A stretch of DNA of 62,706 nt, the filler included, from Hausera hauseri (lineage: Eukaryota), in assembly GCA_046269625.1 (NCBI GenBank). It is 12 parts of 12 records of this genome, joined end to end, with 100 filler letters (N's around TTAATTAATTAA, not from the genome) between each part and the next. Parts side by side here need not be neighbours in the genome. Positions count along the whole stretch, not along the records: positions 47,031 to 52,850 come from JBJURY010183417.1; 11 more parts are not named here. One strand, given 5' to 3'. The notes beneath the pieces are model-generated. The model was not told where the DNA came from, ran no database searches, and saw nothing but the letters and a program-made list of their open reading frames with translations. Positions within the stretch are counted from its first letter, which is position 1, and the number at the start of each line of letters is the position of its first letter. The position numbers and the translations under genes were made by a program. Below are positions 1,190 through 55,180 of the stretch, piece after piece.

Positions 1190-4100
1190 ATTTTGATTTT
1201 TAGAGCGAAGAGTCGGACCAGACTATTGATCCGACGGGGCGACAACGGACGCCCGGCCGCGCCCAACCAAAATGGGCCAAAGGGCGCCGGCCGTGGTGGG
1301 CACTACAACACCCCCCCACGTGGCAAAGCGAAAACTATAAAGATCAAAATAGACGGGAAGAAAAATCGCTAAACGAAAAAGTGTCTGTGTCAGCTGATCT
1401 TAGTGTAGACAAGACATAGGGTGCCTTCTACTGATTTTTCCCTGCTATACTTGCTAAATGTGACTGCGTGTTTTATCTTTATGCGATGTGTTTCCTTGCA
1501 GAGTTTGAAGTTGGGGAAAAATTGTCAAATTTTGTTGTGAGTGTTGTGTTGTGCAAAGATTAGTTAGAATAAAAGAAGAAGGTGAAGGAGGAAGAAAGAT
1601 TGTTGAAGACGGATGGTTAAAGGTATTCAATATAGTGTTAGAAGACGAAGGAATGATAAAAGGTGTAGTGGCGGATGAAGGAAGAGAGAAGAACATTGGA
1701 GTAGAAGTTGGAATTGTATTAGACGAAAGAGTGGAAGTGAAAGATGAAACAGGGGTAGTGGTAGAGAGAGAAAAAGAGATAGGGATAGAAGTAGACAGAA
1801 GAGGAAGTTGTAAAGCGGAAATGGAAGGAGTGAAAGACGATGTATGAGGAGAAAAGAAGAAAGAAAGCGCCGAAGATGAGAAAGGTGTGGAAGGAGAAAG
1901 AGAGAGATAGAGAAGACGGCGAAGAGAAACAAGGCGGAAAAGAGCAAGAAGATGGAGAAGGCGAAAGAAGGTAGTTGGAAGGTGGTATGCAAGAGGCTGG
2001 AATGATGAAAAGAGTGAATGGAGAGATTAGTGAAGGCGAAGTGATGTTTGGCGGAGGAGGTCTTGTAAAAGGAGAAAGCAAGTTGTCAATAGGGGATGGA
2101 GGAGGTGTTAAAAGGATTGAGGGTGCAAAATCAGGTGGCGAAAAAGAGGATGAATTGTCAGAAAAAAATGAAGTAGAAGTCTTGGGAGAAAACGTAGGGG
2201 AAAGTGGGTTAAAGAAATGAGCAGAGATGGAAGGTGAATTGTTGGATTGCGGCGCGTCGTGTAAAGATGTTGGTGGAGAAGTAGTTTCGATGGCAGACGT
2301 ATCGTCAATGACGAAAGCCGGCTTAGCGGTCTTGATGTGGACTGTTACTTCTTTTTCGTCCTTGAGAATGATGATGTTATGAGAGTGTAGACGAATTACT
2401 TTGTATGGGCCGACATACTGAGGTTGAAAACCACAGGGCGTCTAATTTTTTAGCCGCACGAACTTGGCAGTATATAAATAGTCGGATATGTATGGTTTAT
2501 TTCCGTGTTGCAGTCTACAGAATGAGTCGTTGCTGATCTCAACGAATTGGCTCTGTGCCGCTTGTATGGTTTCATCTGTAGGAATATTATCCAGCTAGGC
2601 CAGCTTGAGTAATGGTCTGATAGAAGTACCAAATAATGCTTCTGCAAGTGAACAACCTCTAGAAGTTGATGGTGTGTTCCGCCAGCCAAGCAGAACGTAC
2701 GGAAGGAGTGTAGTCCAACTGGGATTAGACTCAGCAAGGATTTTGAGAGACGTTTTCATCGTGCGGTGAAAGCGCTCAAGAAAACAATTCGACTATAGTT
2801 GATATGGTGACGTGTGAATGTGGTTAATTCCCAATCTATTGATACGAGCTTTAAACAGGTTGGATTCGAACTGTGGATCTTGGTCCGAAATGATGTGCGA
2901 GGTGATCCAAGTGCGGATGAAAACGTCTCCGATGGTTTCTGTGTTGGTGCTCCGAAGCGGAACAGCCTCTGGCCATCGCTAGGAACGGTCCATCATTTCG
3001 AGGATGAACTAATGGCCGTTGTCTAAGGGTAGTGGGCCTACAAGGTCAACGTGAACAGATTCAAAACGAGACGTGCAGGAAAAATGAAATAGTGGTGGCT
3101 TTAAGTGCTTAGTAACTTTGTATTTCTGGCATGCAACACACTATCTAACCTATGCCTTCACGTCAGCGCGCATCTACAGCCATACTACTTGGCGTTGTAA
3201 GAGTCGAAATGTGGCCTTGGCACCAGGATCGTGCAGCGAATGGATGTTGTTGAATGCTTCTTTTTGAAGCGATTCAGATAGGATGACTTTAGGATTATTA
3301 GGTTTGGAGGTGTCAAAGGCCACACCGTCGATGGTTTTGCACGATTTAAAAGATTTAAGGATGTCAGGAGGTGGCTGGTTTTGTTGAAGTTTAAATTGAG
3401 GGAAAATTGGTGTAAAATTAATCGTGCTGACCGATCGGGACTAAAAGTCAGCTACTAAATTGCCGACTCCGTTTAAGTGCTTAATTTCAAAATTAAATGT
3501 GGACAAATATTATATTTGCTTCGGCTGATGCGGAGAAGGCGACTCCATGGTAAGAATTTGAAGCAAAGGCTTGTCGTACGTTTGTATTGTAAAGGTTCGT
3601 GCGGTTAGCAGATGCTTGAAGTGTTTTATGGCAAGGACCGTTGCAAGCAACTCTCTGACAGAGGTGGAATATCTTTGCTCTTGTGCCGTAAATTTTCGAG
3701 AAAAGAATTCTAATGCCTAATGGGATCCATTTTTGACTTGATGTAAGACAGCACCTGCAGCTGTTGTGGATGAATCCGTGGTTAAGAAGAGTTCTGCATG
3801 GGAGTCGGATTAGACCAGGATTTCCACGATTTTTAGATTATCTTTGAGGTGATCGAAAGCATTGACTAGCTTGGCGGTCCATTGAACAGGCTGTTTTTTT
3901 GCCAGAGCTTAGTGATGCAAATGGAGCGGTTAGAGTGGAGCAGTGTGGAATATACTTATGAATAAAGCGCAAGGTTCGGAGGAAAAATGCATCTCTGTTG
4001 ATGTACCTGGTAGTTGTATGTTTTTGAGCTGTGTGACGCGCTCTGGCTGAGGTGAATGTCCGGAGGAGCTAATAACATGTCCTAGGAAGTTGACCTTATG

Positions 4101-8020: not shown

Positions 8021-11000
8021 AAAAATTTCCCAAAACCTACTACTGTCAATGAGTTACGCAGATTTTTAGGACTGGCAAATTATTATTGAAGTTTTATAAA
8101 GAATTTTAGTAAAATAGCCAAACCACTCTATGAATTATTACGTGAATATTTAGAAAAGGTAATATGGACAAGTGAGTGTAAAAAGGCCTTCGAAGACCCG
8201 AAAGAAAGATTATTAAATGCTTCATCCTGATTTATCTAGATATGACTAAACCATTTATATTGGCAAAGGACGCAAGCGATTATGGGGTAGGAGCGGTATT
8301 ATCACAAAAAGGCGAAGATGGCAAGAAACATCCAGTTGCTTATGCGTCGAGAAAACTAAATAAACAACAAAAGAAATATGCCGTTATTGAAAAGGAATTA
8401 TTAGCGGTGACATACTCTTTAGAAGTGTTCTCACCGTATATTAGTGAGAATAAACCATTGATAATATACCCAGACCATCGACCACTGCAATGGCTAAAGA
8501 AGAATGAGAACCTCAGTAGTAGGTTACTACGGTGGGCCTTAAAACTCCAACCTTATACGTTAGATTTTCAACACAAACCCTGCACACAAAATGCAAATGC
8601 GGATTATTTATCAAGAATGCCGAAGAAAGAGTTAGAAAAGAAAGAGGTGATTGCAGCGGTGTGGAGCATGGATGGATCCGCAGAAAGAATAAAAGATAAT
8701 CAAGAAGAAGATGAAGAAATAAAAGCTATTAGAAATTATATACAAAATAAAATCATATCCAAGGATAAAGAATTGGCTCGTCATCTAACTAGATTTAGCG
8801 ATACGTACGAAGAAAAAGATGGATTCTTATACTATATTCATCAAAATGGACCTGTACTAGTAATTCCAAAGAAGAATAGAGCGGTACTGCTAACCCAATA
8901 TCATAATGGATTACCAGAGTACATCAGTCAATGAGAAAAGCGATAAATAAATTAAAAAGGAAATACTTCTGGACTACAATAGCAAAGGATGTCAAAGATT
9001 GGTGTGACAGCTGCAAACTGTGTGCGAAACGAAAGAATACGGGATCCAAATTTAAAGCGCCCCTGAAAATATTGGACAATCCACCTGCCCCGTTTGAATT
9101 TACAGCAATAGATGTAACAGGACCTCTACCACTAACAAGAAACGGAAACAAATACATCCTGGTGTTTATAGATTATTTTACCTGATGGGTTGTTGCACTG
9201 CCTATGCCAGATATGAAAGCTGAAACGATAGCCGAAAAAGTTGTTGAAAACATCATATTTAATTGTAAAGCTCCTCGAATCGTGTTAACAGACCAAGCAT
9301 CCAATCTAACCGGTAATGCAAAGAAATCAGTATACGATATTATGAAGATATTAAAGTTGAGTCCAACTCCGTTTCATCAGGAAAACAACGGAATGGTTGA
9401 AAGGTATATAGGAGATTTGAATGAAAAGCTACAAACAGTAGTTAATGAAAGACAAGACGATTGGGATGAGTATATTAACGCATGTGTTTTTGTGACTCGA
9501 ACGTCTGTGCACTAAGCTACCAAAGAGACACCCTTTTATATGATGTACTTAAGAGATGCCAGATTACCCATTGATTTGGATTTCAATGTACTGCCTATAT
9601 CTCAGTTAATGGAAGTAGAGGAATATAAGCAGCTAATGCAGGAACGTCTCCAATTAGGGTATACCATAAGAAAAGATAAACAGAAGGAATATAAAATGAA
9701 ACACAAAAAGTATTATGACGAAAAGACAAAGAAGCCGGTAATCAAAGTGGGAGATAAAATGATGCTATACATGCCGTTAAATAAGAAAGGCAAGACATCC
9801 AAGCTGGACAGATCTTATAATGGACCGTATGAAGTAGAAAAAGTGGATTTGCCTAACATATGTTTAAAGAAGAATAATACTAGAATTAAAGTACATGTCA
9901 ACAGGTGTAAACCTGCGCCGAAGGAGAGCGGATTAAGAAACGACGAACAGGAACTAGTACGGGCCATCGAATTTAAAAAGGGAAGTAATAAAACTCAGAA
10001 TTATGACGTATTCAAATACCTATGTCTATTTGTTTTTATAGGGACACCAGGCCTGTTAGCTCAAACAACAAAACCACTGGATCCATGGATGAGAACATTT
10101 CCTTCAAATGAAACGTTAGAAAATAGCCTGATGAAAAGTGTTTATCATGAAATAACCTATACCAGGAAAGTCCAAAAAGGTATAAGCTTTATGATATTCG
10201 AAAGGTTACCCAACCAGTATATGATAGTAACTCAGATGATTACGAACAAAGCCCGAAACAACAAAAGTATGATTGCGGCCTTACTTATTGGAGGAACACG
10301 ACAGAATGCATAGTAGATGACCGCGGCAATTATCTCATATACTATACTCTCATCAAAAGACATAAGAACCATTATAAATGGCAATATACTAAGTGCCGAG
10401 GTATCATACAGGTTCCTAGTAGAAGGACAATGAATGTAACCAAATTAGATAAGATAATATTAACTCAACTCACTGTTAGGCCGATAGCATTTAAAGGTGG
10501 ACGAAGCTGCATCGAAATTAGAACAATGATAAAACTGGAAGAAAATAGAGTAATAAGTATAAGACTTACAGATGTAGAAAAGAAACAACAGATGACAACA
10601 AAATGCCAGTTAACTGACAAGCATCTCCAAGTCTGCTGTAATGCTTTACGGGGAAGAACCTATGACTTACAATGTAGGTTACTACAAAAGAATCGAGAGA
10701 GCGTTAAAAGTCAAACTTACCAAGGGCCTAGAACATATGTTCCACTCAAAAGTGTCATTGAATATGACGATGACCAGCAGCCCCATGTCACGACATCTCT
10801 TGTAAATTCTACGCTATCTAATAAAATAAATACAAACGTCGGAGAAATGACCGTTCTTATTCGGCCTCATGACTCGTCCTATTGTTACAAGCATTCCGTC
10901 TTAGAAAATGTCACAATATCTTCCACGCTGACTTCTTTAATCATAGCCACCCAACCTGAGTTAAATTTTTATAAAATTAAACTCACTTGTAAACTAGGTC

Positions 11001-11962
11001 AAAAGATAATAGCAAAAGGCACAATTACACCAGACGACACCGTAGTGCCGTGTGCCGACTTAAATCCAAATATGAAATATACGGTTACACTGCAACTATA
11101 TGGCGACGATAATACCATAATTTCTATTAAGTTACCGACAGCCTCAACGGAAAGCAAAATAAAGCAGGCAGTAGAAAATAAAAAGGTGAGTCTAAGTAAA
11201 AGTCCACCACTACCGAAAACGAGTTACACCCATTCCCGAATAGAACTGATCATAATTAGCACTGTATGTCCCATAATTTTCTTAATCACGTTAGCGTTTA
11301 TAATAAAACTAATTGTTTGTATAAGAAAACGTCGCAGACCAAACTGGGTTAGAATAGACATGCGACGCATACCAAATATTTTGGATACTGATAATCCAAG
11401 TTGACGATGGCTTCAGCAGATTGTTGTCGACAAAATCCGAGAAATTAAGATAACTGAATATTATTCATTTACCGTGAAAAATAATAAGTTTAAAATGACA
11501 ACGATTACCAAACCGAAATATATGATAACCGTTGTATTATATTTAAGATTTTGTGATATGGATATGACATTGATTTTTACAGCAATGGATATTCAGGCCG
11601 CGCAGCGCAGCACGAATTGGTACGAGAACGCCAAAAACCACCTGATAAATGCAAACTCTTGTAATCAATACTACATCCGAGTCAACGAAAATACTTACAG
11701 TCTCAATTATCCAATGATTCACCAAATACCCAATAATCTCAAAGGGTATTCAATGGGGAATCGATCATTGGCGTTAGTCCACATAACAAAGGCTACCTCA
11801 TTTCTTTCCGGATAAATTTCACAGTATTAATATTTATGACATCATCGGCAAATTCCAAATAAAAATAAAGGACATTAAAACAAATCAGCAAGGGGAATTA
11901 ATCAACTTGTATCCAAACCACGGAATGGCACTCCAATTCGAGGTAATCAAAAGAAATATTCT
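8021..11962 (+). mobile_element. Ty3/Gypsy element (family B): RT connection, RNase H and integrase followed by membrane-protein ORFs
   Basis: RNase H DASDYGVGAVLSQ..PVAYASRKL..EKELLA..DHRPLQWL..NADYLSR; integrase zinc finger (CDSCKLC) and core AIDVTGPLP..TDQ..NGMVER; GPY motif. Confidence 0.95.
10005..11404 (+). pseudogene. Env-position type I membrane protein: signal-like peptide, Cys-containing ectodomain with FN3-like module, TM helix, basic cytoplasmic tail
   Basis: VFKYLCLFVFIGTPGLLAQ lies in the integrase frame; the frame of ORF 10430 is open back to 10151; NVTISSTLTSLII..YKIKLTC..DLNPNMKYTVTLQLY fits FN3 LxPxTxYxVxV; TM IELIIISTVCPIIFLITLAFIIKLIVCI followed by RKRRR. Confidence 0.7.
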
Positions 11963-13044: not shown

Positions 13045-13587
13045 CTAGTATTTATTTGTTATTTCACTCATCGCAGAAATAAGCTGTTGTACTATTCTGA
13101 GCAAATCAGATACATGTTGAGTCATATATTGTAGGTGTTTCTTTTCTTCATTTTCTGAGTAGGGCTGGATTAATGGGTTCAATTCAAATTTGATTGTTAA
13201 GGTATCACTGGACAAAATTGAATCCAATTTTCTTAGTGGATAAAATGTTGGAAAACCAATTGCACTGTTGCGTCCACTTTCGGGTTTCATGTAACATACA
13301 TAACTGCTATCTGTTTGTATTCTGTCTGAGCATATGACAGCACCTTGTTCATCCAATAGAGACATTTTTATTATTCCACGAAAAGGCCATTCCAACGTTT
13401 CATCATCTTCACCTTTCACCAAAGCAAAAAATACCGATAAATGTGTATATCTGCCAACACCGTCACCTTCCGGATAGACTCTAATACAGAATTGGTACCC
13501 ACTGATACTGAAAGTATCACTGATAATGACCATATTGTCTTTGCTTTTTTCGTTGAAGTTTGTTAATTTCCAAATATAGGTATTCAT
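13045..13587 (-). CDS. Intronless stand-alone TRAF-type MATH domain protein (180 aa)
   Basis: YIWKLTNF..SDTF..GYQFCIRVYPEGDG..THLSVFFALVKGEDDETLEWPF..IKMSLLD..GFPTF..DTLTIK; AATAAA at 13023-13028 on the minus strand. Confidence 0.88.
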   Translation of the reverse strand: MNTYIWKLTNFNEKSKDNMVIISDTFSISGYQFCIRVYPEGDGVGRYTHLSVFFALVKGEDDETLEWPFRGIIKMSLLDEQGAVICSDRIQTDSSYVCYMKPESGRNSAIGFPTFYPLRKLDSILSSDTLTIKFELNPLIQPYSENEEKKHLQYMTQHVSDLLRIVQQLISAMSEITNKY

Positions 13588-13617
13588 AATTAATGAAAAC
13601 AGGATATATGTACATGC

Positions 13618-13820: not shown

Positions 13821-14535
13821 ATAGAATGAACACGTATAATACACTTGTTGATATTTTGTGAATGTTTTTATTATTTAGTTGTTACAAATAAGACTAAGCA
13901 ATACAAATATTATTTAACAATTCTTCATCTAAAACAGCAAGCATATCAGCAATAACATACGATTGGTTAAATCAATAATGTTGCAATACTTTAGGTAATG
14001 TTACACACACACATTTAATACATATATTGTTAACACTAATGCACCTCATTAGTGACCACATATGTGGATTAATATGAAGCGAGAGTTAATCAGTCCTCAT
14101 TAGGGTATATATATTTTGATTTAGAATTTTCACGCGACTTTAATAATTTATTTACAAAAATTGCAAAACATGGAGAAGTTAGTGAAATTTTTATAACACA
14201 AAATCTATTTCATCAAGGATATTGTAAATAAATTATTAAAGTCTGCGTGAAAATTCTAAATCAAAATATATATACCCTAATGAGGACTGATTAACTCTTG
14301 CTTCATATTAATCCACATATGTGGTCACTAATAAGGTACATTAGTGTTAACAATATATGTATTAAATGTGTGTGTAACATTACCTAAAGTATTGCAATAT
14401 CATTGATTTAACCAATCGTATGTTATTGCTGATATGCGTGCTGTTTTAGATGAATAATTGTTAAAAAATATTTGTATTGCTTAGTCAAAAAACATTCAAA
14501 AATATCAACAAGTTTATTATACTTGTTCATTCTAT
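13821..14535. repeat. Long imperfect inverted repeat (foldback): arms 13821-14157 and 14222-14535, 64-nt loop
   Basis: Arms are reverse complements end to end (ATAGAATGAA/TTCATTCTAT outer; TAATAATTTATTTACAA/TTGTAAATAAATTATTA inner) with scattered mismatches and one about 20-nt indel. Confidence 0.95.
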
Positions 14536-16506: not shown

Positions 16507-19500
16507 CGGATAAACGCCTAGATGGCTCCAAAAATTTTAATCGACAGAATGACAGCCGAAATTACGATAATCGCCAATATGGAGACCTTAGACAGGCCCT
16601 GTCGCAGCGAGGTTACAATAGAAATCCGAGTAAATCAAAATCTCCATTAAATAAAGATGGCCGACAGAGGATCGGAAGAAACGGCAACTTAATTTGTTAT
16701 ACATGCGGACAAGAAGGACACATAGCGAGATCCTGTCCAAACCCGCGAAGTGTTTCGTTTGTCGAACCTAGTAAAAGTAATGTAATTAAAAACGAAAATT
16801 TAGAAGCAATTTACAATGTCCGTAGAGATACGAACATGATCATCGAGATACAAGATTTACGACATTTTTTAAAGGCCCAGCCTGATACTAAGGACCCCAA
16901 AGTTTTAGTGGTTAGAAACCAGTACGAACATAAGTTACGACTATTAGAAGTTTATCACGGTCTGCGCGAACCAAAAACGGAATATGAACGTTCCATTGCC
17001 CCACCAAGGCTGAGTAATATGGCATGGAAGAAGAATATTCCTACAATAAATAAAAAAGTCAGATGAAATGCGAAAACCTGAGAGCCCTGGCATGGTAGAT
17101 TTAAATGTAGAACCGGAGTATACTGTAAAAAAAGTAACCAAGGAGGCAGAGCTCGACGAAAAAGAAGAATTTCTAGAATCATTCATACTTAAAATTACGA
17201 AGAATAGGGGCCGTAGCCCATCAATGAGACGGAAACGCAAGGATCGCTCGAGATCCCCAATGATTAAGGAGAAGTCAGACACAAAGATAGAAACCGAAAT
17301 CGCGTTAGAAAGCGACACAGAGTGCGCCTCAAACGTTCCGGAAATTAATCTAGTTACGCAGAGCGAAATGGATGAGTCAACGAAATCTATAAATGAGATA
17401 AACGACATATGTCCCTTACCTACTAGCAAAGAGGAATTAGAACAAGAGAAACTCGATCCTAATAAGTGGAAAATCATGCGCTCGTCGACAAATGCCGATG
17501 AATTCAAAAGAATGAGGATAAACTGCTTCAATCCAGAGGTAGTGCGACAGAATCTGGAGAAACTTAAAGCAATAAGTAAGCAAGTAGATATTTCGGGCAA
17601 GTAACAGCAGTTTGTAGAGAGATTATATAAAAAGATGAAGCTATATAATGAAGGAAAACTAAGTGAAGCTATAGACTTAGATCAGCCTGAAGAAGTGGCA
17701 AAAGAAACACTAGTTCAATGGAAACGCGAATTAGAACGGTGGATTAAAACTGAGACGAAATTTCCGGAGACGTGGGATAAAACTACCCAAGACATTAAAA
17801 CTAGAATCAACCAGGCTCAGTCGCTATTGGCTACATTAGAAGCCAACCCGAAATTAAAAAGAGTAGTACGTAATTTGGAGCGTGTCACGAATGAAATTAG
17901 ATTTGCAATAGTCGAACGACTAAAAGGAAAGCCGGTCAAGGAACGAGATGCAGATGAGCTACAGATATTGGGCATAAACCCAGTAGATATTCCACCTTTA
18001 ATGGATATGACAAAAGTCGCTTCGACAGCCTCCAAGCAATATAATAGTTTGCAAAATCGTATTTAAATTAAAGCCGAAAAACGGTCGCAGAAATATGGTC
18101 TAAGGAACAGAATTATGCACACCAATAGCGAAGAAACACCCAAAATAATTATGGTTTGTATCATCGAGTTCGATGAATATAAGGATGAATTTGACCATGC
18201 CTGCCGGATCATCGATTTTATTAAAGGTCCAGATGATGAACTAGAAGATGCTCGCAAAATGTTAAACACAGCAATCTTGGCGAAACCAGAAATCGCTAAT
18301 CAGTTGAACGAATGGTCTAAAGTAATAATAAGGTTAAGCGAATTAATAAACAGACGGAAGAATGAATATTCGGAGAGCGAACCTACAGTAAAAATGCAAC
18401 TGGAAGAAGACGTCTGAAATCTAGATACGATGAAAGCAGAAATTGACATCCGAATCCAATTCGAGGCACTGCGTCAATTGGACTTTATGGAAAAGAAACA
18501 GGAGTTAATGATACTAGATGATATATATAAGATAATCGAAGAAACAAACTTCATGCGAAAGCGAAATGCGATTTGTGATTTCTATCCGCGATTAAGAGAT
18601 GTTCGCCTAAAGAGAATACAATAGTTGACAGCCAAACCTACCGAAGAAATCTCGATCCGAGATATTAAAACCTTAGACTGTTGTCCCGAATGCCGGTTAG
18701 TCGTGGAAGAAGCGGTTAAGTTCTTACATCGTCCCCAAGAATGGACAGATGGAACGGATCAAAGACTTCATAACGAACTAAGTAAAATAAATAACGACCG
18801 CCACCTTAATTTTGAAGAGATTAAATTTGTAAAACAATTATTAGATGCGATCGATCCAGATTCAAACAGCATTAACGAGATGTACGAATTAGCGCTATTG
18901 ATGGCGGAAATGGCAGAAATTAGTGACAAAAATCTAAAACAATTGTTGCAGCAGATACAGCAAGTCGAAGAAACTTGCACGAGGACGAAACAGAAAGCGA
19001 TGAGATTATACGAATTAGCTAGAGAATTCGAAAACTATAAAAACAAATACGTCCTTACAGAAGCAGAAAAGGCTGACAGGTCACAATTCATTCAAAGATG
19101 GCAAAGAAATGTCACGTCTGAATTAACGAAATATCAAGAAAAAGGGTTAATTTCACCCGAAGAATTGTGTTCATTGTTAACACTACTTAACCAAACATCC
19201 GCTAATGGGCGATGTTTTCGAACGACGAAAATTGTCCAAATGCAACAGAAACTACAAGAACTCAGAAGAACTACACGGACCGCAGGTGTAGACAAGTCAA
19301 CTGATACACCGTCGAGGAGCTATCAACTGCTAAACGATGAAAACGAACCAGATTGGGAGGCACATTTAGACGCAATGATTGTCGAGAATCCGAAAACCCC
19401 AATACAATTGGATGAAATGGATGTATATTCTTCGGACCAGAGACTTAATGTAGGGATGCTTCTGGACCCAGTACAAACCGAGAAAGATTTAATTCAATTA

Positions 19501-21466
19501 ATTGAAGTAAACCTTACTGACAATCAACTAAGACAACTAGTTCCCACTTTAACTAAATTAACTAGCGAAGATACGATTTCTAGTACGGTACTTAAGCTTT
19601 TACTTAAGGAATATGCAAAATTATTAAAGGCAAAGGCAGAGGAAATGATCTCAGTAAAGATAACATCAGACTGGATAGACGAGGAGGAACAAGAGTTTAC
19701 TACTAACTCCCTTGTAAAGGATGTATTACTATGGATAAAGAACAATGGATACGCCCATAAGCTAAGCTATAGAGTCTATTTTAGATGAAGGATATTAGAC
19801 GAGTCAGAATTATTGATAGAAGTTGGAATTATTCCAGGTGAGGTAAACCGGTTAGTGGTAACTACGGCCATCAACGAAACAAAGAAGGAGGCTATAAGAA
19901 AGGCTAAAGCAGAACAACAGTTAGGACGAATAATAGGAGTCCGAGATGTAGCAGTATATTTCGAGTACCTGCAGACAGATGAAGATAATGAACAATACGA
20001 TAAAAATTTAGTGCCGATCAATGGCAGTACGCCTCCTGTGACAAAACCGAAGCATCATATCGGTAGGCCACGGAAGATACGAGACGAAATCGACTATAAT
20101 AAGGACCTAATCAAAGAATTGAGACAAATGTCCATACCAAGTTTCAATGCGGATAATGAGGAATTAAACAAACTGATGAAAGATTTGATACGAATAGTAA
20201 ACCACACTAATCTCGGCAGTGATATAGTAGGTGAGAAGGAAAAGGCCATAGCAAACACCGCAAAGGCTATGAAAGGTCTTCGGTGTAAATTAACCAGAAG
20301 TACTTTAAGTGATGAAATGACAATCGAGAAAATTATGGTAGAAATTACCATAGAGGAATTGAAAAAAGTGTTGCTATATCTGGCCATCAAAACCAACCAG
20401 AACCGGGAAAATGAATTTAACAAGGCTACCAGCTTGGCAAGGAAGGCCGCAAGGAAATTACGTCGAGAAGTGAACTGGTCTAAGTTATTCGAAAAAGAGG
20501 AAGAACATCAGAATAGATTATTCTTCGATAACAATAGATTCGGAGATCTACTTCAGAATGCAACCGGAAATTTCAAAGGAAATGAATCGAACTGGCTAAT
20601 CAACTTTCTGACCATGATGATGTTGATAAGACAAAAGGGCGAAGTTACAGTATATGATTGTGACAAATTTAAATTGGGCCAAAAATACTCATTAATGGAC
20701 TTAGAAATGTGCGAAGATGCAAGGCCCTACAAATTAGAAACAAAGGAGAAAAGTTATATATTTTATCAACAACGCGAACTATTTACCTGGGACGGAGTAG
20801 AATGTATGTTACGGCAATCTCGCATCATCTTTTATTGTGGACTTGTACATGGGCACTCGTTAATAATTAAGCCAACAACCCCACTAATTCCGATAAATTT
20901 AGAGCGACAACATTGTAAGCAAGCTAGATAAACAAGGAAAATAAAATGGGATGGTATGGAATTGGAAATGCAGCAAGCGAAAATAATCAGAATGTACAAA
21001 GTGGCAGCAGGAAGGCTGTTTATGCACACCGGACATTATTATGGTGCGGAATACGATATCGGAAAAGGATTAGAGTCAAACATCGTAGTAGTGGATTTTT
21101 ACGAAACCGAAATGCGTATACAGAAAGTGACGCTTCATAGCATTACCAAACTTTACACGGAAAACCATAAGTGCCATATTCAGGATGGCACATGCTCGTT
21201 TCGAAGTTCCGTAGTAATTTGGGAACCCCCAGCCAAAACCGAGTGCAACTTTATCAGAATTAAAGAACTTAAATTCAACGAGACAATAGGAAAACGATAC
21301 ATAAGTAGCATGGAAACTAACTCTGAAACACGAAAAGATATAGCTAAATATTCCACACTTACGATAATGATTTCTGATACTCATGGATTAAAATTTGTAA
21401 AGAAAGCTATGCTCACCAGATGCGACGTCGTAATGTATGCCGCTAACTATGAAGCATTTTTTGTAA
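16507..21466 (+). mobile_element. Decayed retroelement-like polyprotein: Gag CCHC knuckle, about 1,250-aa helical region, signal peptide, chuvirus-like glycoprotein; no pol domains
   Basis: CYTCGQEGHIARSCP at 16695; ORFs 17068, 17635, 18115, 18430, 18625, 19813 and 20956 share one frame, separated by single stops; one frameshift in the A6 run near 17055. Confidence 0.8.
20590..21466 (+). pseudogene. Chuvirus (Jingchuvirales)-like fusion glycoprotein, N-terminal half
   Basis: Hydrophobic WLINFLTMMMLI then VYDC..YSL..C..YQQ..EC..FYCG..HS..C..CHIQDGTC..VIW..C, the Cys/motif spacing I recognise from chuviral G proteins. Confidence 0.75.
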
Positions 21467-21566: not shown

Positions 21567-23670
21567 TCGACGGTGTGGCGTTTGACACCTCCAAACCTAA
21601 TAATCCTAAAGTCATCCTTTCTGAATCGCTTCAAAAAGAAGCATTCAATAGCATCCATTTGTTGCATCATCCTTGTGGCAAGGCTACTTTTCGACTCTTA
21701 CAACGCCAAGTAGTATGGCCGTCGATGCGCACTGACGTGCAGACATGGGTTAGGCAGTGTGTGGCATGCCAAAAATACAAAGTTACTAAGCATTTAAAGC
21801 CACCACTATATCATTTTCGCTGCATGTCTCGTTTTGAATCTGTTCATATTGATCTTGTAGGCCCACTACCCTTAGACAACGTCCATCAGTTCATCCTCAC
21901 AATGATGGACCGTTCCTCGCGGTGGCCAGAGGCAGTCCCGATTCGGAGCACTAACACAGAAACCATCGCAGACGTTTTCATCCGCACTTGGATCAGCAGG
22001 TTTGGACCACCTCGCTACATCTTTCGGACCAAGGCCCACAGTTCGAATCCAATCTGCTTAAAGCTCTTGTCAATCGATTGGGAATTTACCACATTTACAC
22101 GTCACCATATTATCCTCAATCGAATGGCCTTCTCGAACGCTTTTACCGAACGATTAAAACGTTTCTTAAAATCCTTGCTGAGTCCAATCGCCGTTGGACT
22201 ACACTCCTTCCGTACGTTCTACTTGGCTGGCGGAACACACCGTCTACTTCTACAAGCTGTTCACTTACAGAAGCATTATTTGGCACTTCCATTAGATAAT
22301 TATTCGAGCTGACTGAGCTGGACAATATTCTTAAGGAGAAAGCCATACAAGGGGCACAGAGACACTTTGTTGCGATCAGCAAAGACTCATTCTGTAGACT
22401 ATTACACGGAAATAAACTTTACATACCCGACGATTTATATACTCCCAAGTTAGTATGGCTGAAGAATCAGACGCCGTGTAATTTTTAACCTCAGTATGTT
22501 GGCCCTTACAAAGTAATTCATTTACACTTTCACAACATCATCATTCTCAAGGACGACAAAGAAGTAACAGTCCACATCAACAACGCTAAGCCGGCTTTCT
22601 TCATTGACGAAACGTCTCCCATCGAAACCACTTCTCCACCATCTTTACACGACGCGCAGCAATCCAACAATTCACCTTCCATCTCTGCTCAATTCTTTAA
22701 CCCACTTTCCCCTACGTTTTCTCCCAAGACTTCTACTTCAATTTTTTGACAGTTCAGCCTCTTTTTCCCCATCCAATTTTGCACCTTCAAGCCTTTTCAC
22801 ACCTCCTTCATCCCCTGGTGACAACCTCCTATCTTTTTTTACAAGACCTCCTCCGACAAACACCACTTCGACTTCACCAATTTCTCCATCTTCTTGCTCT
22901 CTTCCGTTTTGTCCCTCTTCGCCGTCTTTTCTCTCTCTCTCTCTCTCTCTCTTTCTCCTCCCATACCTTCCTTATTTTCGGCGCCCGCTTCCTCCCTCTC
23001 TCATCACACATCGTCTTTTACTCCTTTCATCTCCGCTTCGCAACTTCCTTCTCTCTCTACTCCTATCCCTATCTTTCTTCCTCTCTCTACTACTACCTGC
23101 TTTATCCTCTACTTCTACTCTTTCACCTAACGCAATTTCAATTTCTACTTCAATTTCCGTCACTCCTCCTTCATCCGCTACTTCACCTTTTTTCACTCCT
23201 TCGTCTTCTAACCCTCTCTCAAACACCTTTAACCGTCCATCTTCACCAATCACTCTTCCTGGTTCACCTTCTTCTTCTCTTCATTCTAATTTGTCTTTGC
23301 ACGACACAACACTCACAACAAAGTCTGACAATTTTTCCCCAATTTCAACCTCTGCAAGCAAACACACCGCAGAAAGATAAAACAAGCAGAGTCACATTTA
23401 GCAAGTACAGCAAGGAAAAATCAGTAGAAGGCACCCAACGTCTTGCTCACATTAAGACAAACTGACACAAACACTTTTTCTTTTGGCGATTTTTTCTTTC
23501 TGTCTCTTTTACTCTTTATAGTTTTCGCTTTGCCACGGGGGGTTGATGTAATGCCCACAGAGGCCGGTGACCTTTGGTCCACTTGGTTGGGCACGGCCGG
23601 GCGTCCGTTGCCATCGCGTCGGATACTTAGTCGGGTCCGACTCCCCTCGAAAGTTGGAATTAAAATATCC
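21567..23670 (+). mobile_element. CsRn1-like Ty3/Gypsy copy 2: integrase, S/P/T-rich tail, PPT, 3' LTR start
   Basis: HHPC..W..CVACQK, HIDLVGPLP..DRSSRWPEAVP, SDQGPQFES, NGLLER; G6 PPT at 23537-23542 then TGTAATG at 23547; collinear with 1190-3330. Confidence 0.93.
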
Positions 23671-39889: not shown

Positions 39890-42556
39890 GTTCCGCTCGT
39901 CTTATTATTCGAAAATAAGCATACGCAAACCTACTACATACACAAATCAATAACAATTGCAAATTTTTCAGACACGTTACGGCGACAAACAACTCTTGCT
40001 AATTTTCGCCTTAGTTATAATGGATTTTTTTCCGACAATCCGACATTAGAACAAGTTACACCCACTCATCTTCAACACCTATACTCATCATACACTACCG
40101 TCTGTTAGGTGGATCTGATCCCAAAGCATCTTCTAAGGACCAACAAAACTTTACCGACATTCCTACTATAAATGTACCGTTAAATTCATCTCTACCTCCG
40201 TCGTCTACTGTAAACCTACCTTGCACAGAATACTTCCTTGACAAGCAACATTTCAGCCGGATGTGGTTGGACTTTCATGCGGCTTGGTTGAAGTTGAATA
40301 ATGTTGTCGACTCTTTTCTTAAAGCAAACATTTTGCTTATACTCTTGCCTTCCAACATTAAGTCTCAGCTTTCAAATTTGTCGAAAATTTTCCAAAGTAG
40401 TGACCAATACAAAACACTTTTTAACTCGATTTAAAAAAATCACGGAACCATCTCTGGATAACATCATCCATAAATATTTTAACGACAACACCATAAGCAC
40501 ATTAAAACCCTCAGAATTTCTCCAAACTCCACTAACCCAATTGAGTACTCTTGGCGTTAATCAAGCAAATAACGGCGATTTACTACGCAAATATTTTCTG
40601 CAGTCTTTACTCAGAGATATACTTGCGCTGCTGACCATAGTAGAGGACACATCATCACTACAAAATCTAGCACAACTGGCTGACAAAACCCACGAGATAT
40701 TACATGCACATGCAGCCCCATTAGTAGCCTCTACGTTACAAGTACCAACAATTCAATAAGCTAGCGACATAGCTAATCTAAACTCAGATAAATTTTTTAC
40801 GTGATGAAAACGCCCAAATACATCAAGCAATTTCTGCACTTACGTCAAAAATTGAAGCTTTGACTATACCTAGACGAAATCGTTTCGATGCGAACCATAG
40901 CCGCACTTCGTCTCAAAATTTAAGGCATGCGAGATCACCTACACGATCAATGGTGTGTTACTACTACACAAAATTCAAAAATAACTCTACTAAATGTTGC
41001 TTAGGTTGCAGATTTTATGTTCCCCATTTTAAGTGATCCGATATTATCTGCATATACCATAATAACTTCAATTCCAAAGCACAGAACTGCGTTACAGGTT
41101 GCACATTTGTTAACAAATTTAATCCGTCACATCCTACGCCTTCCAACAACATAAATCCCGTGCCTCCAAAAAACATATAAAGCCACCAGATGTTTCGGCA
41201 CGTGCTGGCACAGGCAAACGTTTTCATCATAATAGCCGTACTTATGCCGTTTTTACATTAAAAGCCTCTTAAACTTCCGAATTCAATCAATCAACTTCCT
41301 AATAGATTCCTGGGCAGCTGTCTCCTTATTACCACCATCCATCTCACCATCTAACATTACAGTGTACACAGCTAATGGCCAAGCATTACGCATTTTCAGC
41401 ACATCCAAGGTTTCATTCACTTCACCAGCATTCTCCGACATTTTCCATTGGGCTTTCATTGTCGCAGACACATAATCTCCAATACTTGGGTCTGATTTCT
41501 TATCTTTCTACAACCTTCTTGTAGATTGCAGACAATGTCGAATAATTAAAAGCAGTTCAACATAGCCAACCTCCATTAATAACCAACCGATCACGCAGAC
41601 TATTTCACTTATAAAATCCATATTAAATAATCCATCAACCAGTGTAAATAAAAGCCTCATTAAGACCAATATAAATAGTCCTACGTTTCCATTGAAGGCC
41701 GATTTAGGCGGCCCGATTTCTACCGTTTCTCACACTAAGTCCAATCAAGCCACTGCCATAACAACAGCCTTTTCTACACTTAGCCAAGAAATGCAACAAT
41801 ATTTAACCAAATTTTGTTTTCATGCAATAAAAAAGATCCAGAATTTCGACCTGCTAACACGACGCTTCATCATATCATCACAGAAAATCCTAGACCCGTT
41901 AGGCACAAACTTTGCCCACTTTCACCACGCCGTCGACAGGCAATCCAAGCGGAATTCTCTGCACTCGAGCAAGCCGGAATAATAAAACGGTCAAAATCAC
42001 CGTGGGCATCACCACTCCACGTCGTACAAAAAAGAAGGCACATTCCGTCCATGCGGCGATTATCGCCAATTTAATAACGTCACTACCATGGATGCTTATC
42101 CTCTACCTTTGGTTACGGATATATTACATTCTTTGCACAAAACTATGATTTATTTAACCATAGATCTTGAAAAAGCTTACCACCAAATACTGATATCACC
42201 CGAAGACATCAGAAAAACGGCCATAATAACACCTTTTGGTCTTTTCGAATATGCATTCATGCCGTTCGGTTTAAAGAACGCAGCACAAACTTTTCAACGG
42301 CACATTGACTCTGTTCTTTCAGGTTTGCCATTTGTTTATCCATATATCGATGATATACTAATCGGATCGATATCATCAAAGCAACACGACGAATATCTCA
42401 GGTTTGTTTTCTAACGTTTAGTCAACTACAATTTGCAATTGAAATTTTCTAAGTGTTCCTTCTTTCAGAAAAAGGTCATTCCACAGCCTGATAGAATCCA
42501 TCAGCTACGAAACATCGAGCTACCAAAAACCACTACTGATATGCGTAGTTTCCTTG
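39890..42556 (+). mobile_element. CsRn1-like Ty3/Gypsy copy 3: UBL-gag (two CHCC)-PR-RT, truncated by contig end
   Basis: ..IIHYRLLGG at about 40090-40113; CYYY..CCLGC and CIYH..CVTGC; A-AAA-AAC at 41168-41174; RT IDLEKAYHQI..MPFGLKNAAQTFQR..YIDD. Confidence 0.92.
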
Positions 42557-43819: not shown

Positions 43820-45856
43820 TTGGATGGGGAGTTCTGCTGCCCGCCATTGATGTGCCATCCTTGCGGGTTCGTGCGCTCGATCGTTTGTCCCGGGGCTGTG
43901 GGTCGCGCGGAGTGCAAGGCGAGGCTTATCACGTCACGCCCCTGGCTCCAGCCAGCCAATTTTTTCCATCTTTATTTTTAAGTACAACATATATCCAAAC
44001 ACATACCGTAAATCACAATACCTTAGGAAAAGAGCTGCATACTTCAATCTTACACGCCACCGACATGTCTGACTTTGCTTTGTTTTTCAATGCCTTTATC
44101 ATCCGTCCACATGATCGTCTGTATAGCTCTTTTTTGCATCCCTCTTCATCCATTTGTATTACGTTTCAGCCTAAACTTCATGGTGGCTCTGACCCTAACT
44201 CTGACGAGATAAAGAAGTAGCCTAACATAACCTTCGTGTCGCCAACTTTTCCTCTTTTTCACACTTCCAGTGCGTTGACTTCTTCCTCGATAATCAGAAT
44301 TCCAGTAGAATATGGTTAGACTTCCACGCAAAGTGGCTAGCCTCACATAAAATCACCGATTCTTTTCAAAAAGTCAACAGTTTGCTGATTCATCTGCCGC
44401 CCAACATAAAATCCTTCATTACTAATCTATCTGACATCTTCAATTACCCCGACCCCTTCAAATCTCTACTGGACGCCGTAACTGCATCAACCGAGCCTTC
44501 GCTATACTCCATAATTCAAAAGTATTTAAACGAAAATGCTCTTGGCCAGCAAAAACCTTCAGAATTCCTTTGAACATCACTTTCACAACTAAATTTACTA
44601 GGCGTAACCCAACAAAATAACGCCGATCTTCTCCGACGTTATTTCTTATCATCCTTGCCAATCCAAATCCGCGCACTCCTCACTGTAGTGGAGGATTCTA
44701 CGTCGCTCGACAAACTGGCGCAACTTGCGCACAAAAGTTACAAAATTTTTCATACCAATAATGCACATACAACGATTTCAGCTTTACAAGCAACTCAATC
44801 ACCAACAATAGTTGCATATCCTCAGTCAACAAACTCATCAAACAACGCAAACAACATAGTTAATGAAATTCGAAATCTTCAATCCAAAAATGCTGCCTTA
44901 CATCAGGCTATTTCGGCTATATCTAGTAGACTCGACGCTTTGTCCTTTCCGCGTCATGATCGATTTAACGCAAATCGAAGCAGACAATCGTCTGTAAACT
45001 CCAGGCGTGCCCAGTCACTTTCGCGACGGATGGTGTGCTATTATCACACCAAATTCAATCGAAATGCCAAAAAATGCTGTACAGGCTGTAAATTCTATAT
45101 GCAGAATTTCCAATCACACGATGTAGTTTGCATTTATCACAGTAAGTTTAAAGGTAATGCAAATCGCTGCTTATCTGGGTGTTCGTTTTACATCCAGAAC
45201 ACTCCAACGTCTTCATATACTCAAAAAAACGCCTAAAGTCGCCAGAAACCACGACAAATTCTGGCAAAGGCCATCTTTCATCACATTACAGCTGTACTAA
45301 TGCAGTTTTCCTATTGAACGCTGCACTCACATCTTCTCCACACCATACTAAATTCTTGATTGATTCTGGTGCGGCCGTCTCGTCACTACCTTCATCTTTC
45401 CATTCTTTAAAAATTCTTCCAACCTCTGCTAAGCTACTTACTACCAATGGGCAAGCCTTACGCATTTCTGGTACTGCAGAACACTCCTTCAACTTAGCAC
45501 ATTTATCTGAACTTTTTCAATTGAAGTTTATTGTTGCTGATATCAAAACTCCCATCTTAGATTCTGATTTTCTATCGCATTACAATTTACTTGTCGATTG
45601 CACACAGCATCTTGTGATCAAAAATACAATTAATAATACAAAATCGCAAAATAATGCACCACTTGTCGCGCAGTTGACTGTAACGCCAGAGTCTATACTA
45701 AAGAAATCTTTTGTTAAACCAGAGAAATTGAATGTTTATAACTCCAATTGTGACGTTTCCATTTATACAGTAACAACAAAAGCAATTGCCAACACCTACA
45801 CAACCTTTCACCTCACCTCCCCATTAAGGCAACTGGATACAGTTCTTCGTGATTAC
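43820..45856 (+). mobile_element. CsRn1-like Ty3/Gypsy copy 4: UBL-gag-PR, interrupted by a nested element
   Basis: QPKLHGG at about 44167-44187; CYYHTKFNRNAKKCCTGC and CIYHSKFKGNANRCLSGC (C-x2-H-x9-C-x3-C); protease FLIDSGAAVS. Confidence 0.92.
45224..45230 (+). promoter_or_regulatory. -1 ribosomal frameshift heptamer A-AAA-AAC at the gag-pol overlap
   Basis: In gag phase (CAA AAA AAC GCC TAA); the pol frame is -1; same heptamer at 41168. Confidence 0.8.
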
Positions 45857-48969: not shown

Positions 48970-51260
48970 GACAATGGCTATGAAAATTGCTACAACTCAG
49001 ACAGAGCACAAACTATTTGAGTTTGGAGCTTCTTTACCTTAGAACATGTTGCCAACAATTGGCGATGTCATGCGGTTAGTGTGGAGGCTAAAATGTGAAT
49101 ATGGTGATAAAAGATTTGCCTGCATGGAAAATATTATTAAGAATGTAGCAAACAAATTTGGATTCCTATGGGCGAAGGCTGTTGGTGATAAGACAGTTGT
49201 TCCTTTAGTTTTTTAAAAGGCAGTTGAAGAGCGCATCAAGAGATTGTACAATAAAGGTGTGGAAGTAAATAGAAGCAAAGGTGCTAACAAAGTTGCTGCA
49301 TACCAGATTAAAACGGAAAAGCTCTTTGATATCTGCTCATGTGATTGTCCTTCATCAAGTTGCAGTGATATTGGATTCGAGGTAAGGCAATGTTAGCACC
49401 TTTGCTTCTGTTTTCATCTTGGTTGTAAATGCAAAGTGAAGGTTCCAAAGAGAGAAGTGGGGTTTTTGTTGAATAAGAGAGGTGAAAGGAAGATGATCAT
49501 TGATGGAGTTTATATGACAGTTACAAAGATGTGAAGGAGATCCGCTTTCACAGAGGAAGAAGAGCTGACAAGAGTCAAGAAGTATGCCGAGCTGAATAAA
49601 ACTGCTGAAGTATTTGTTGCTGACATTGGTATGGAATTGGAATCAGATGATACTTCCACACACATCCTGATTACATTCCTGCCGATACTTCTTCTCTGGT
49701 TAATCAAAACAGAACTGCTCTTCCAACTCTATCTGAGATTTGTGATCGCTATGGTGTGAGCAATGAAACCGGAGCTGCTAGTGAATCTGCTGTGCTTGCC
49801 GATTATGGATTCATCACGCCAAAAGAGAACGGTCAAGTTATTGATCCCGCCAAGCTACACGGAGAGCGTCGCAAATCCACAATGGAAAGATAACAGGGTG
49901 AGATTGAATATTTTCAAAAGACAATTACTACCTATTTTGATGGAAAGAAAACAGCAACACGAAAGTTGGTTCAAAATAAGAAAACCGGAAAGTGGAGTCC
50001 TAGATCGAACCTGACCATCAGTATCTCACTCATGTTACTCCTGTCACAGGACATGGCAAAGCTATTGCCGAATCAATTTTCAGCTTTATAAAAGAAACAA
50101 ATTTAACTGAACAGCCGATTGATTGCGTAAGAGATGATAGAACAAATGTGAATGTTCGTTTTGCAAATGGAGCCATCCATAATCTTGAAATGATGTTGAG
50201 GAACCCATTGCATTACTTTATTCGTTAGTTGCACGGAAATGGATTACCATGTATGGCACTTTTCTATCACTAAGATGGTAAACCATTGGGACCGGAGCAC
50301 TGGAGAGGTCTCATTGGTAAGAAAGTTAACAAAAATTTGTATGAAATGCAAGTGGTCCAGTTTCCGTCAATTAATTTTGAAAATTTTCCAGTAATTGATG
50401 ATGACTTTGCACCAGACCTTAGCTTGGACCAAAATATCTTTACTATATTTGCCATGCTAATGATTATCTGGCTGCTATTGAGCGTGGCCCTCCCTATATC
50501 TCGAGATGGCTGACTCCTTGGAACAGGATTCTACGTCTGTATATCTCAGATGATGATCCGACTCATGAACTATCAAGACTTGTTATTATGATTATAAAAT
50601 TCGGTGTTCCGATGTGGTTTCAGATAAAGTTCACATTTACAGCAGCCAAGTTGATGAAAAACCTTAGTCTTGAAGAGTAAGTCATTGCCAAGAAGTGTTT
50701 TGAGAGAAATGCATTTTTGCACATTCAGACTAGTTGCTTCTTGCTATGTGTGCAGATCAAGTTGAAAAGGTGAGAAGGAAAGCCGTAAAACTGATTAGTA
50801 AGTTGAGAAGAGAAGGAGGAAGTAATATGTCTGATATCAAAAATAAAGTTACTGACGAGGATGTATTACATAAAGACGTCGATGCTGAATTACTGAAATA
50901 TACAGATGATGAAGAAGAATCAGACTGTAGAAAAGGTGAAGGAAATCCAGGTATAGAACTTGATAAAGACATTAGAAAGGTATGTTCATAAAATTGATTG
51001 GCATGCAAGTAAGTACCATTCCATGATTAATTGGACAAAAGAACTTAAACCTGAACTTCCCTTTATTGTAAGGCTATCTCATAAGGAACTTCTCAACATT
51101 TTGAATATTCTGGTTGGTCCTAAGTGTCCAAATCATACTCGAGAGGCTTGTGTGGCAGTGACCGGAGTCCAGGTGAGAGATCATTACATAAGACAGTCTC
51201 TTCGGTAGGAAAGTGTGATGTCAAAGTTAAAGAAAAAACGTAACTTTAATTTAGTTACGA
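48970..51260 (+). mobile_element. Decayed hAT-superfamily (hATx-like) transposase
   Basis: LFDICSC, LHGNGLP..DGKPLGPEHWRGLIGKK, SRWLTPWNRILRLYIS, PMWFQIK, RNAF..LLAM, YHSMINW, CPNHT; many stops. Confidence 0.75.
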
Positions 51261-51399
51261 ATTAGCTATTTCTGTGTAAGTTTTAAACACTAATCTCTTA
51301 TTGCTTGTTTAAAATGTTTTTGAGTTAAAATTCTATAAATTAGAAGTCTAAAATGAAACGGTTACTGTGGTGCATAATGGTGCATAATGATGCATGATG

Positions 51400-52850
51400 A
51401 AAAATTAAGAATGTTCAATAATTTTCAAAATACCAAATATGTATTGAATATTAAAACAAGAAAAATGTTTTATATACAAATCACCGATTAGGTGAATGTG
51501 GAAACCACATTACCCCCTCCCCATCCGTGACAAGGTTGGTATTGCCAGGAGGGACGCACCGAAGGTCTTCTGGCAACCAGACTTCTGAAACCTGATGATT
51601 GATTATATTTCCGTTATACACCGATTTGTTCTCTTGCAACTAAAACCAAGATGTGAATGGCGAATGGGCAAACTCGGGTTCTTTTTGTATAGCCATAATC
51701 TTTTTCGCATTACTCGGTATTCGACAATCAATACATAAAACATTGGCCGAATTCAGATTCCGTTTAACAAACGAGGCAGGTGAGCAGGAATTGTTACTGG
51801 TAGAATTTTTTACCCCAACGAATGGTATTTTTGCGTCTAAATTCGACTCAACTGCTCTGGCAGACGGAATGTTACTCAGCTGTTTACGAGATATCTTGTT
51901 GTTATTATGATAATTCAACGTATTGTTCAAATCCATCGAACTTTTCGAATTGGCTTTATAGTCACAATTTGATGAAAAGCATATGTTAGATTTATGATTT
52001 ATAGATCCATCGCCTTTTGTTGTCATAAGCAAATGCGCTGAGAAGTTGTTCGAACAATCGTCGATTTTTTTTATTTTTATTCTGTGGTCGATAGAATGAC
52101 GAATTGCTGTCATCACAGTCGGATTCCCGAGAACGCTTGTGGGATTTGCGATAATTCAAATAGTTTGAGTTGCTTGTTTTCTAAGTCATGTGATGATTTA
52201 TATTTTTCGATATTGATCGAATCGACAAAAGTACCATTACGAATATCCGGTGCATCGTCGATGCAAAAATAAGGCAATTTCTGAATTTCCCCTAGACGTA
52301 GAAATTACACGTAAAATTCTAATTTATGTTTCTCGACTATTAGAGAATTGGTCTCTCCTGGTTCCGCCGGCTGATACAAAACCATTGATCCTAATGGGTC
52401 CGTGACAATTAAAATATGTTGGACTTCTGCCCGTTGTACAGCGACTGTGTACAGATCTGGGCTTCTGACACCAATGTGGATTTCGGTTATTTTGTTTCCT
52501 CCGGCATTATCGCCAAAAACGTAAATTCCGTTATAAAAAAATCCCCGTTTATAGTTAAATGTTTACTGAATGTCGTCTAACTCAATTTTCTAACATTAAA
52601 AATAATCAATCATTTTCCAAATTCAACCTAATGTATTTAATATTAAAACAAAATGTTTAAAATAAAATGTTTTTTATATACGAGTCACCGACTGAGTGAA
52701 TGTGGGCACCACATTACCACCCCCCACGTGGCAAGATTGGTATTGCCAGGAGGGACACACCGAAGGTATTCTGGTAACCAGATTTCTGAAACCTGATGAT
52801 TGACCATATTTCCGTTATACACCAATTTGTTCTGTTGCAACTGAAACAAA
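51400..52850 (-). mobile_element. Tandem TRIM-like non-autonomous LTR element: [internal end, PPT]-LTR(52713-52475)-PBS-internal-PPT-LTR(from 51509)
   Basis: About 260-bp direct repeat at 1.2-kb spacing; 239-bp LTR bounded by TGTGG/CCACA; PBS TGGTGTCAGAAG (tRNA-Leu type) at 52462-52473; G-rich PPTs before both LTRs. Confidence 0.8.
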
Positions 52851-54619: not shown

Positions 54620-55180
54620 ATGCTCATCTACAAAGATCTGATTTCAGGTTTGTTTAATTCATAAGTCTATGAAATATTTAAACTCATCTTTACAGGAGAT
54701 GAATTGTGCTCTGATTCATACCCAAGAAAACTCGTCGATGATATTGTCTACGAATTCGACGGTAAACGTATCTCCGTTTCCAATGGCATTTCCGATGCTG
54801 CCATTGGTGGTAATGCATCAGCTGAAGGTGAAGATGATGAGGAAGTTGCCGATGCCGCTGAAACACACATCAACATTGTCTACTCTCACAAGTTGACCGA
54901 AATGTCATTCGACAAAAAGAGCTACACCAAATATATCAAAGATTACATGAAGACCTTGTTGGAAAAACTGAAGGCCACCAATCCGGAACGGGCTGAATTA
55001 TTCAAGGAAAAGGCTCAGAAATATGTTGTCCGTATTCTGAAGAATTTTGATGAATACCAATTCTACGTTGGTGAATCAATGAACCCGGAAGGCATGGTCG
55101 TTCTCTGCAATTACCGAGAAGATCAAGTTACTCCATATTTCGCCATGTTTAAGGATGGTCTTGAGGAAGAAAAATACTGA
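54620..55180 (+). CDS. TCTP: Translationally controlled tumour protein; exons 54620-54647 and 54696-55180 (170 aa)
   Basis: MLIYKDLISG|DELCSDSY..IGGNASAEG..FDKKSYTKYIKDYMK..FYVGESMNPEGMV..FKDGLEEEKY; 48-nt GT-AG intron after the 28-nt first exon; AATAAA at 55181. Confidence 0.97.

Follow-up and report, generated by a model that had tools for sequence, protein, structure and literature searches.

How would a unit of 1.2 kb, equipped with the terminal signals of an LTR retrotransposon but with no detectable reverse transcriptase (RT), integrase, or Gag, have been copied, and whose enzymes would it have used? The locus that raises this question lies at the end of one contig (47031-52850, with an N-spacer starting at 52851) within the window analyzed here, a 62,706-nt stretch of Hausera hauseri DNA in which short contigs are strung together by N-spacers, so that it is not a single locus. 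We consider it reasonably likely, while leaving real room for doubt, that the locus represents a Ty3/gypsy-type LTR retrotransposon family, non-autonomous and present in many copies, of which this one has decayed. The copy is arranged head to tail around a common LTR, its reading frames would be relics, and mobilization would have occurred in trans.

The window of this eukaryote is rich in decayed transposons and also holds TCTP and MATH-domain frames. The TCTP gene occupies one open frame at 54665-55180 (+) (PF00838, E 2e-64). The MATH/TRAF domain likewise lies in a single frame, 13045-13617 (-) (PF22486, E 3e-29), and adjoins a 715-bp near-perfect hairpin (13821-14535); it may belong to a gene that a foldback element carries. 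A 417-codon frame after a Gypsy integrase, 10151-11404 (+), ends in a hydrophobic C-terminal segment, matches no Pfam family at the cut-off, and is possibly an env-like or captured surface-protein gene. A chain of large frames follows a CCHC knuckle at 16507-21466 (+), with a cysteine-rich end and no pol in the frames listed.

We first describe the layout of the small element, all features of which lie on the minus strand. The order is internal 3' end, polypurine tract (PPT), LTR-A, one spacer base, primer-binding site (PBS), internal region, PPT, and LTR-B. The tandem has a period of 1204 bp, or ~1.44 kb if the element is counted with two LTRs. LTR-A (52475..52713), common to both units, is 239 bp long, runs from TGTGG to CCACA, and contains the TATA-like box TATATAAAA at 52680. 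One nucleotide past it lies the PBS TGGTGTCAGAAG (52462..52473), an exact 12-nt complement to the 3' end of tRNA-Leu(CAA). The length, ends, box, and tRNA-Leu-type PBS claimed for this LTR in the initial annotation were all confirmed. The internal region of the downstream unit B spans 965 bp at 39% GC (51510..52474), is without detectable gag/pol homology or an Rfam family, and ends in a PPT plus spacer (51510..51525). Of the upstream unit A only the internal 3' end is present (52714..52850), cut off by the contig end and including the PPT at about 52725-52714. This segment is 88% identical over 134 nt to 51516-51649. The internal 3' ends of the two units differ at 12 of 124 bases, and the longer inter-unit repeat (51401-51649 vs 52592-52850) is 81.7% identical. 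A G-rich tract precedes the LTR start in both units. LTR-A is preceded by a PPT and followed by a PBS, which establishes the head-to-tail arrangement, but a single whole internal region is seen. The proposed tandem of internal-LTR-internal-LTR with a common LTR therefore stands in its orientation and in the position of LTR-A between the units, but its first internal part is just ~135 bp.

LTR-B had been taken for a full copy of LTR-A, and this did not hold. An alignable 5' part of ~110 bp (51401..51509) is not followed by a PBS, and the similarity of the 3' halves is no better than that of shuffles (p 0.12-0.13). The adjoining 51275..51400 is possibly a diverged 3' half of LTR-B or else unrelated flank. 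A 3' att-like 7-mer at 51281-51275 would close LTR-B at 235 bp, such 7-mers occurring at ~2 per kb in the window. We also considered GTAA, which follows CCACA at 51366, as a target-site duplication (TSD) closing a 144-bp LTR-B. It was rejected as unproven because these four letters recur both at the corresponding position within LTR-A and ahead of each LTR start. The right end of the element is uncertain, the left end is lost at the contig end, and neither a TSD nor a dispersed insertion was observed. Next to the element lies a decayed DNA-transposon transposase, about 49000-51208 (+), which has no Pfam match, is repeated in run X1 (see below), and which we take to be hAT-like.

Two public runs, X1 and X2, from two studies with two organism labels, contain part of this sequence (shares 0.24 and 0.07). 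Their Logan contigs were placed on a 3-kb stretch at 80% likeness. X1 contributed 1336 contig records, with 174, 297, 507, and 358 at 99+, 95-99, 90-95, and under 90% identity, respectively, and up to 44 contigs shared one variant. A single X1 contig over 51593-51926 had a depth of 643.5, compared with 4-11.5 for the six flank contigs listed; depth here is one figure per contig and not a copy number, so that distinct diverged contigs are the firmer sign. X2 contributed 67 records, with depth in 14 of 14 bins over 51451-52850 and in 4 of 16 bins before. Many distinct diverged contigs were present in both runs, and the element is thus a multi-copy repeat family. DNA patterns of the element gave no matches in viral contigs or in metagenome contigs. 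The literature, searched without Repbase and Dfam, held no entry recognizable as this family.

A 10-nt direct repeat was also observed at 52408-52399 (-), 55 nt after the PBS, and at 51533-51524 (-), just before the unit B PPT; these are its only two occurrences in the window. Two diverged loose ends from X2 retain similar letters, so that the repeat may be a cis signal.

The initial annotation had pointed to a close match between the PPT/LTR-start junction of the small element and those of two CsRn1-type copies, the rest being unrelated. Both copies lie on contigs other than that of the small element. The matched strings are in place, at 52702..52734 (-) in unit A, 1296..1326 (-) in copy 1 (LTR start 1307), and 23530..23558 (+) in copy 2 (LTR start 23547). 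In local alignment the unit A junction scored 43 with copy 1 and 34 with copy 2. When it was dinucleotide-shuffled 60 times, no shuffle attained 43 elsewhere in the window (mean 25.9, maximum 36). Outside the junction, all four comparisons of the small element with the two copies were at chance. The claim thus stands for unit A, but not for unit B, whose junction score of 28 was at chance (shuffled mean 26.9, maximum 31, n=40).

Seven bases of the junction match equal the att motif of the CsRn1 clade. PMC3601003 (Table 3) gives the CsRN1 att motifs as TGTGGYG (5') and MSYYAMA (3'); compared by eye, the LTR-A start fits the former at 7/7 positions and its end the latter at 6/7. TGTGGYG occurs seven times in the window. 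The match to copy 1 outruns the clade motif by ~12 nt, of which ~5 lie on the LTR side and 7-8 precede the G tract. X1 loose ends revealed further copies of the family in which an identical LTR start stands behind a G-rich tract. As these differ from copy 1 upstream of that tract, the 15-mer in its exact form is in part peculiar to unit A. A looser junction pattern hit 49 loci in a viral contig collection, none of which had RT, integrase, or the upstream motif; one 37-nt match among the same loci was at chance level. No relatives of the proposed helper were found in the viral collection.

Copies 1 and 2 and their kin are CsRn1-type, as judged by CHCC knuckles and by RT and integrase domains. 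RVT_1 and Integrase_H2C2 domains were found in the proposed helper copies; copies 1 and 2 are 82.8% identical to each other over 2144 columns. Copy 1 has its RT (PF00078) at 3933-4496 and a CHCC knuckle at 5622; copy 2 has an integrase zinc domain at 21569-22309. The window holds four CHCC motifs (5622, 41049, 45036, and 45129), and the CHCC Gag knuckle is described as a feature of the CsRn1 clade (PMC2582038, PMC3601003). In the six frames of the small element we found no CHCC or CCHC motif, and a CxxC within its 171-codon frame is neither kind of knuckle.

Several features of these larger elements deserve separate mention. Three CsRn1-type elements have a ubiquitin-like stretch before Gag, at 6525-6740 (-), 39914-40105 (+), and 43978-44217 (+). 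A profile of the three N-terminal stretches matched a ubiquitin structure (E 0.0035), which gives modest support for the label UBL-Gag. Among the literature matches listed, none mentioned a 'ubiquitin-like domain', and of the two findings this stretch is possibly the more unusual, ahead of the small element itself. Copies 1 and 2 (83% alike over 2.1 kb) have ~100 bp in common after the LTR start (1210-1307 (-) and 23547-23643 (+)) and then diverge, which parallels the divergence of LTR-A and LTR-B past ~110 bp. Both also carry a pyrimidine-rich stretch of ~1 kb between integrase and PPT (1400-2440 (-) and 22500-23500 (+)), with several overlapping low-complexity open frames.

The PBS points elsewhere. 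For CsRn1 elements, PMC2582038 describes a PBS of tRNA-Trp type and a 4-bp TSD, whereas the PBS of the small element is Leu-type. Its 12-mer has a single exact match in the whole window, that of the element itself. The same 12-mer is the PBS reported for Steamer (PMC8905726) and begins a tRNA-Leu(CAA) probe (PMC7997516). The att/PPT end therefore leads to CsRn1 and the PBS to Steamer/Mag. The window yielded neither a 5' LTR nor a PBS for any of the three UBL-Gag copies. An 11/12 Leu-PBS-like string at 7715-7704 (-), ~1 kb upstream of the UBL-Gag of copy 1, was not counted as a helper PBS because it has no preceding CA and no LTR similarity upstream, and is the start of a frame with an Ig_NOMO match. 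That frame, of 154 codons, carries the match below threshold. Likewise, a 9/12 Trp-PBS-like string at 6882 was one of 20 such matches and was not counted.

The same kind of element could thus have been served by a Leu-primed Gypsy helper of Steamer/Mag type, with the CsRn1-like junction persisting from an ancestor or acquired when modules were shuffled between families. We regard this as unlikely, though worth serious attention. Besides the shared 12-mer, Mag-lineage elements, as described for Culex, are primed by Leu or Ser (PMC3286476), a helper should share the PBS of its dependent by the argument of PMC4558846, and non-autonomous lineages are reported to have changed primer repeatedly (PMC10886601). 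One X1 loose-end LTR start also fits the Mag C motif TGTNATRT at 7/8 positions by eye. However, LTR-A ends in CCACA and not in the AACA of the Mag A/C motifs, its start is the CsRN1 motif, similarity to copy 1 exceeds the clade motif on both sides, and the window has no other exact Leu PBS. Weighing both ends, we put a CsRn1-type helper at slightly better than an even chance, and this exact UBL-Gag family lower. Mobilization by the CsRn1-like UBL-Gag family, as originally proposed, would fit the extended junction match but not the primer; a helper related to that family is plausible.

We next turned to the internal reading frames. The first long frame (52113..52562) comprises 85 + 63 codons around one stop at 52307-52305, starts in the LTR, and crosses the PBS. 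The second, in another phase (51481..52155), is Ser/Asn-rich, comprises 171 + 52 codons around one stop at 51642-51640, and crosses the PPT into LTR-B. A stop-free frame as long as the 171 codons arose in 7 of 2000 shuffles, and as few stops as the six in its phase across the internal region in 5 of 2000. The codon-position GC of the first frame is coding-like (GC1/GC2/GC3 = 0.50/0.27/0.37). Given this excess of open sequence over chance and the GC pattern of the first frame, the internal region probably once coded. Of the long non-TE frames that had been annotated, the one running through the PPT is present in both units, and the frames are longer than chance. However, they are broken by stops at 52307, 52158, and 51642 and by phase shifts, and the PPT-crossing portion in unit B is 52 codons long. 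At the PPT, a 3-nt indel between the units preserves the frame.

Searches for homologues of the frames were negative in Pfam, PDB sequences, JGI metagenomes, and 1.84 billion protein representatives, as were word-index protein searches. The frames did not match the Gag/Gypsy proteins of the window itself, and a six-frame comparison with its other contigs (216 pairs) gave low-complexity matches alone. A single-sequence fold of the first frame was uninformative (pLDDT 33). At the RNA level, the element had two Rfam matches at chance level, no tRNA genes by ARAGORN, and 5' structure at chance level (z -0.89).

Substitution patterns on the internal frames, suggested earlier as a check, gave no sign of purifying selection. 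Between units A and B, the 12 differences in the PPT-crossing frame comprise 3 synonymous and 9 non-synonymous changes (pN/pS 0.8). The 27 internal differences to X1/X2 that could be classed, taken from the 40 listed (424 more exist) with two rows at a stop excluded, had no significant synonymous excess in any of the six frames (best p 0.145). With 12 and 27 sites, these tests have little power, and the differences may be private to a dead copy. All 10 differences listed in the first frame are replacements. All seven small internal-region indels listed (among 12 of 46 rows) are non-triplet and present in part of the depth only. One X2 loose end bears its own stop in the first frame. At two of the stops of the window copy, most placed contigs read other letters, and other copies may accordingly have longer frames. 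Two X2 loose ends, read by eye, keep a four-residue motif through third-position changes.

These data bear on the gene-carrying cassette offered in the initial annotation, in which the family would encode a functional orphan protein, either an accessory protein or a divergent Gag, of at most ~300 residues, with the window copy being a dead one. The openness of the frames, the coding-like GC, the stops absent from most contigs, the motif kept through third-position changes, and the frame-preserving indel at the PPT would fit such a protein. Set against them are the lack of any homologue in the searches above, the lack of synonymous excess with replacements throughout the listed first-frame differences, the non-triplet indels segregating among copies, and the separate stop in X2. 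We judge the cassette improbable; with one decayed copy readable whole, it keeps a small probability. The family would be of wider interest if its young copies retained an intact orphan frame. Under our preferred reading of a non-autonomous element, the frames are relics of a former coding region, now drifting. That this was most likely a gag diverged beyond recognition is a guess, as no similarity to any Gag was found.

The public runs also contained LTR length variants, with joints skipping 46-47 and 151 bases. At one joint, sequence like the cut end of unit A runs on as internal region. Among the contigs listed, none covers PPT, LTR, and PBS at once, and none reveals a TSD. A satellite derived from a TE, or a plain tandem duplication, with a 1.2-kb unit amplified by unequal crossing-over alone after retrotransposition had ceased, would account for the purely tandem arrangement, the missing TSD (the left end being cut by the contig end), and the small fraction (0.03) of X1 material placed that runs into unlike sequence, but we think it very improbable given that unit A retains an exact PBS and att ends, that copies cover a wide range of identity and of LTR length, that neighboring units differ by ~10%, unlike a homogenized satellite, and that Logan contigs are too short to reveal flanks.

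Our data therefore favor a non-autonomous element, for which the following model can be proposed. The LTR promoter would yield an RNA that is packaged by the Gag of a helper. For reverse transcription, tRNA-Leu would act as primer at the PBS, with further priming at the PPT, and integration would be carried out by the helper integrase. The common PPT/U3 end would mean that the element either descends from or has adapted to a CsRn1-type family, a relative of copies 1 and 2, which would also be the likeliest source of RT and integrase. Because the units differ by ~10%, the tandem may have arisen by LTR-LTR recombination of two already diverged copies or by an old duplication. The long frames would be drifting relics of a coding region, likely a diverged gag. 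A bolder version, which we hold to be a long shot, envisages a high-copy animal family that is mosaic, with CsRn1-type ends and Steamer/Mag Leu priming, and whose young copies encode an orphan protein of up to ~300 residues, e.g. a private capsid or packaging factor, while parasitizing the RT and integrase of a CsRn1-type family whose Gag bears a ubiquitin-like extension.

The element carries the signals in cis that reverse transcription and integration of the LTR type require, and RT, integrase, and Gag were not detected (a very diverged gag is possible). Of the miniature parasite mobilized in trans that was first suggested, the LTR, PBS, and PPT without gag/pol homology and the many diverged copies stand as observations, while mobilization in trans is the part that we infer. 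At ~1.44 kb the element exceeds the strict TRIM limit of <1000 bp (as used in PMC6934838 and PMC10886601) and falls within the looser 'under 4 kb' definition (PMC4558846). Judged by its signals, the element works like a TRIM. As it is over the strict 1-kb limit, we file it as a non-autonomous LTR retrotransposon, neither a strict TRIM nor a CsRn1 member.

Several known systems resemble this element in part. TR-GAG elements of plants are short LTR elements with a long frame and without pol; here, by comparison, no Gag homology was detected and the frames are broken. The CsRn1 clade has the 5' att motif TGTGGYG that also opens LTR-A (PMC3601003). It is described with a Trp PBS (PMC2582038), however, whereas the element has a Leu PBS and neither a CHCC Gag nor pol. 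Steamer, which is Mag-related, has the identical 12-nt PBS and LTRs of 153-219 bp (PMC8905726). It differs from the element in being autonomous and in its LTR ends (TGTAACA...TAAACA) as given in the same source.

A close likeness is to ta-TRIM of taeniid cestodes, which, as described in PMC4558846, is in the ~1 kb class, with ~200-bp TG...CA LTRs, a tRNA-Leu PBS, a PPT a few bases before the 3' LTR, and some tandem copies. Its proposed helper, lennie, was deduced from identical first LTR bases, much as the CsRn1-type candidate is here. By the same description, ta-TRIM differs in having an internal region of ~590 bp with no ORF over 120 codons, and it shares both PBS and TSD length with lennie. 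The biv-TRIM of bivalves is another animal TRIM with repeats of 202-218 bp, a PPT, and tandem and truncated copies (PMC6934838). Its internal domain is reported as 77-80 bp with no clear PBS, in contrast to the 965 bp and exact 12-nt PBS of the element. Helenus/Ajax elements are likewise non-autonomous, with Gypsy-type PBSs including tRNA-Leu and with tandem arrays, at lengths of 311-1263 bp (PMC10886601). Their helper was also proposed from short terminal similarity; their LTRs, as that source describes them, carry tRNA- or 5S-derived sequence, and none was found in the element by Rfam or ARAGORN. By this criterion the element does not group with Helenus, Ajax, or Cassandra, the families with small-RNA-derived LTRs.

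Tandem copies are also on record from sugar beet, with 97 reported in 38 of 115 families (PMC13570524). In the sources cited, few TRIM-like families of animals have been paired with a candidate helper (those of ant, bee, cestodes, and bivalves, and Helenus/Ajax), and the present element would add one that, to judge from at least two related data sets, seems to be abundant. Paired with its CsRn1-type candidate, it offers a test case for which cis signals decide the choice of helper. The element probably used the enzymes of a larger retrotransposon, an arrangement already known from tapeworms, clams, and plants.
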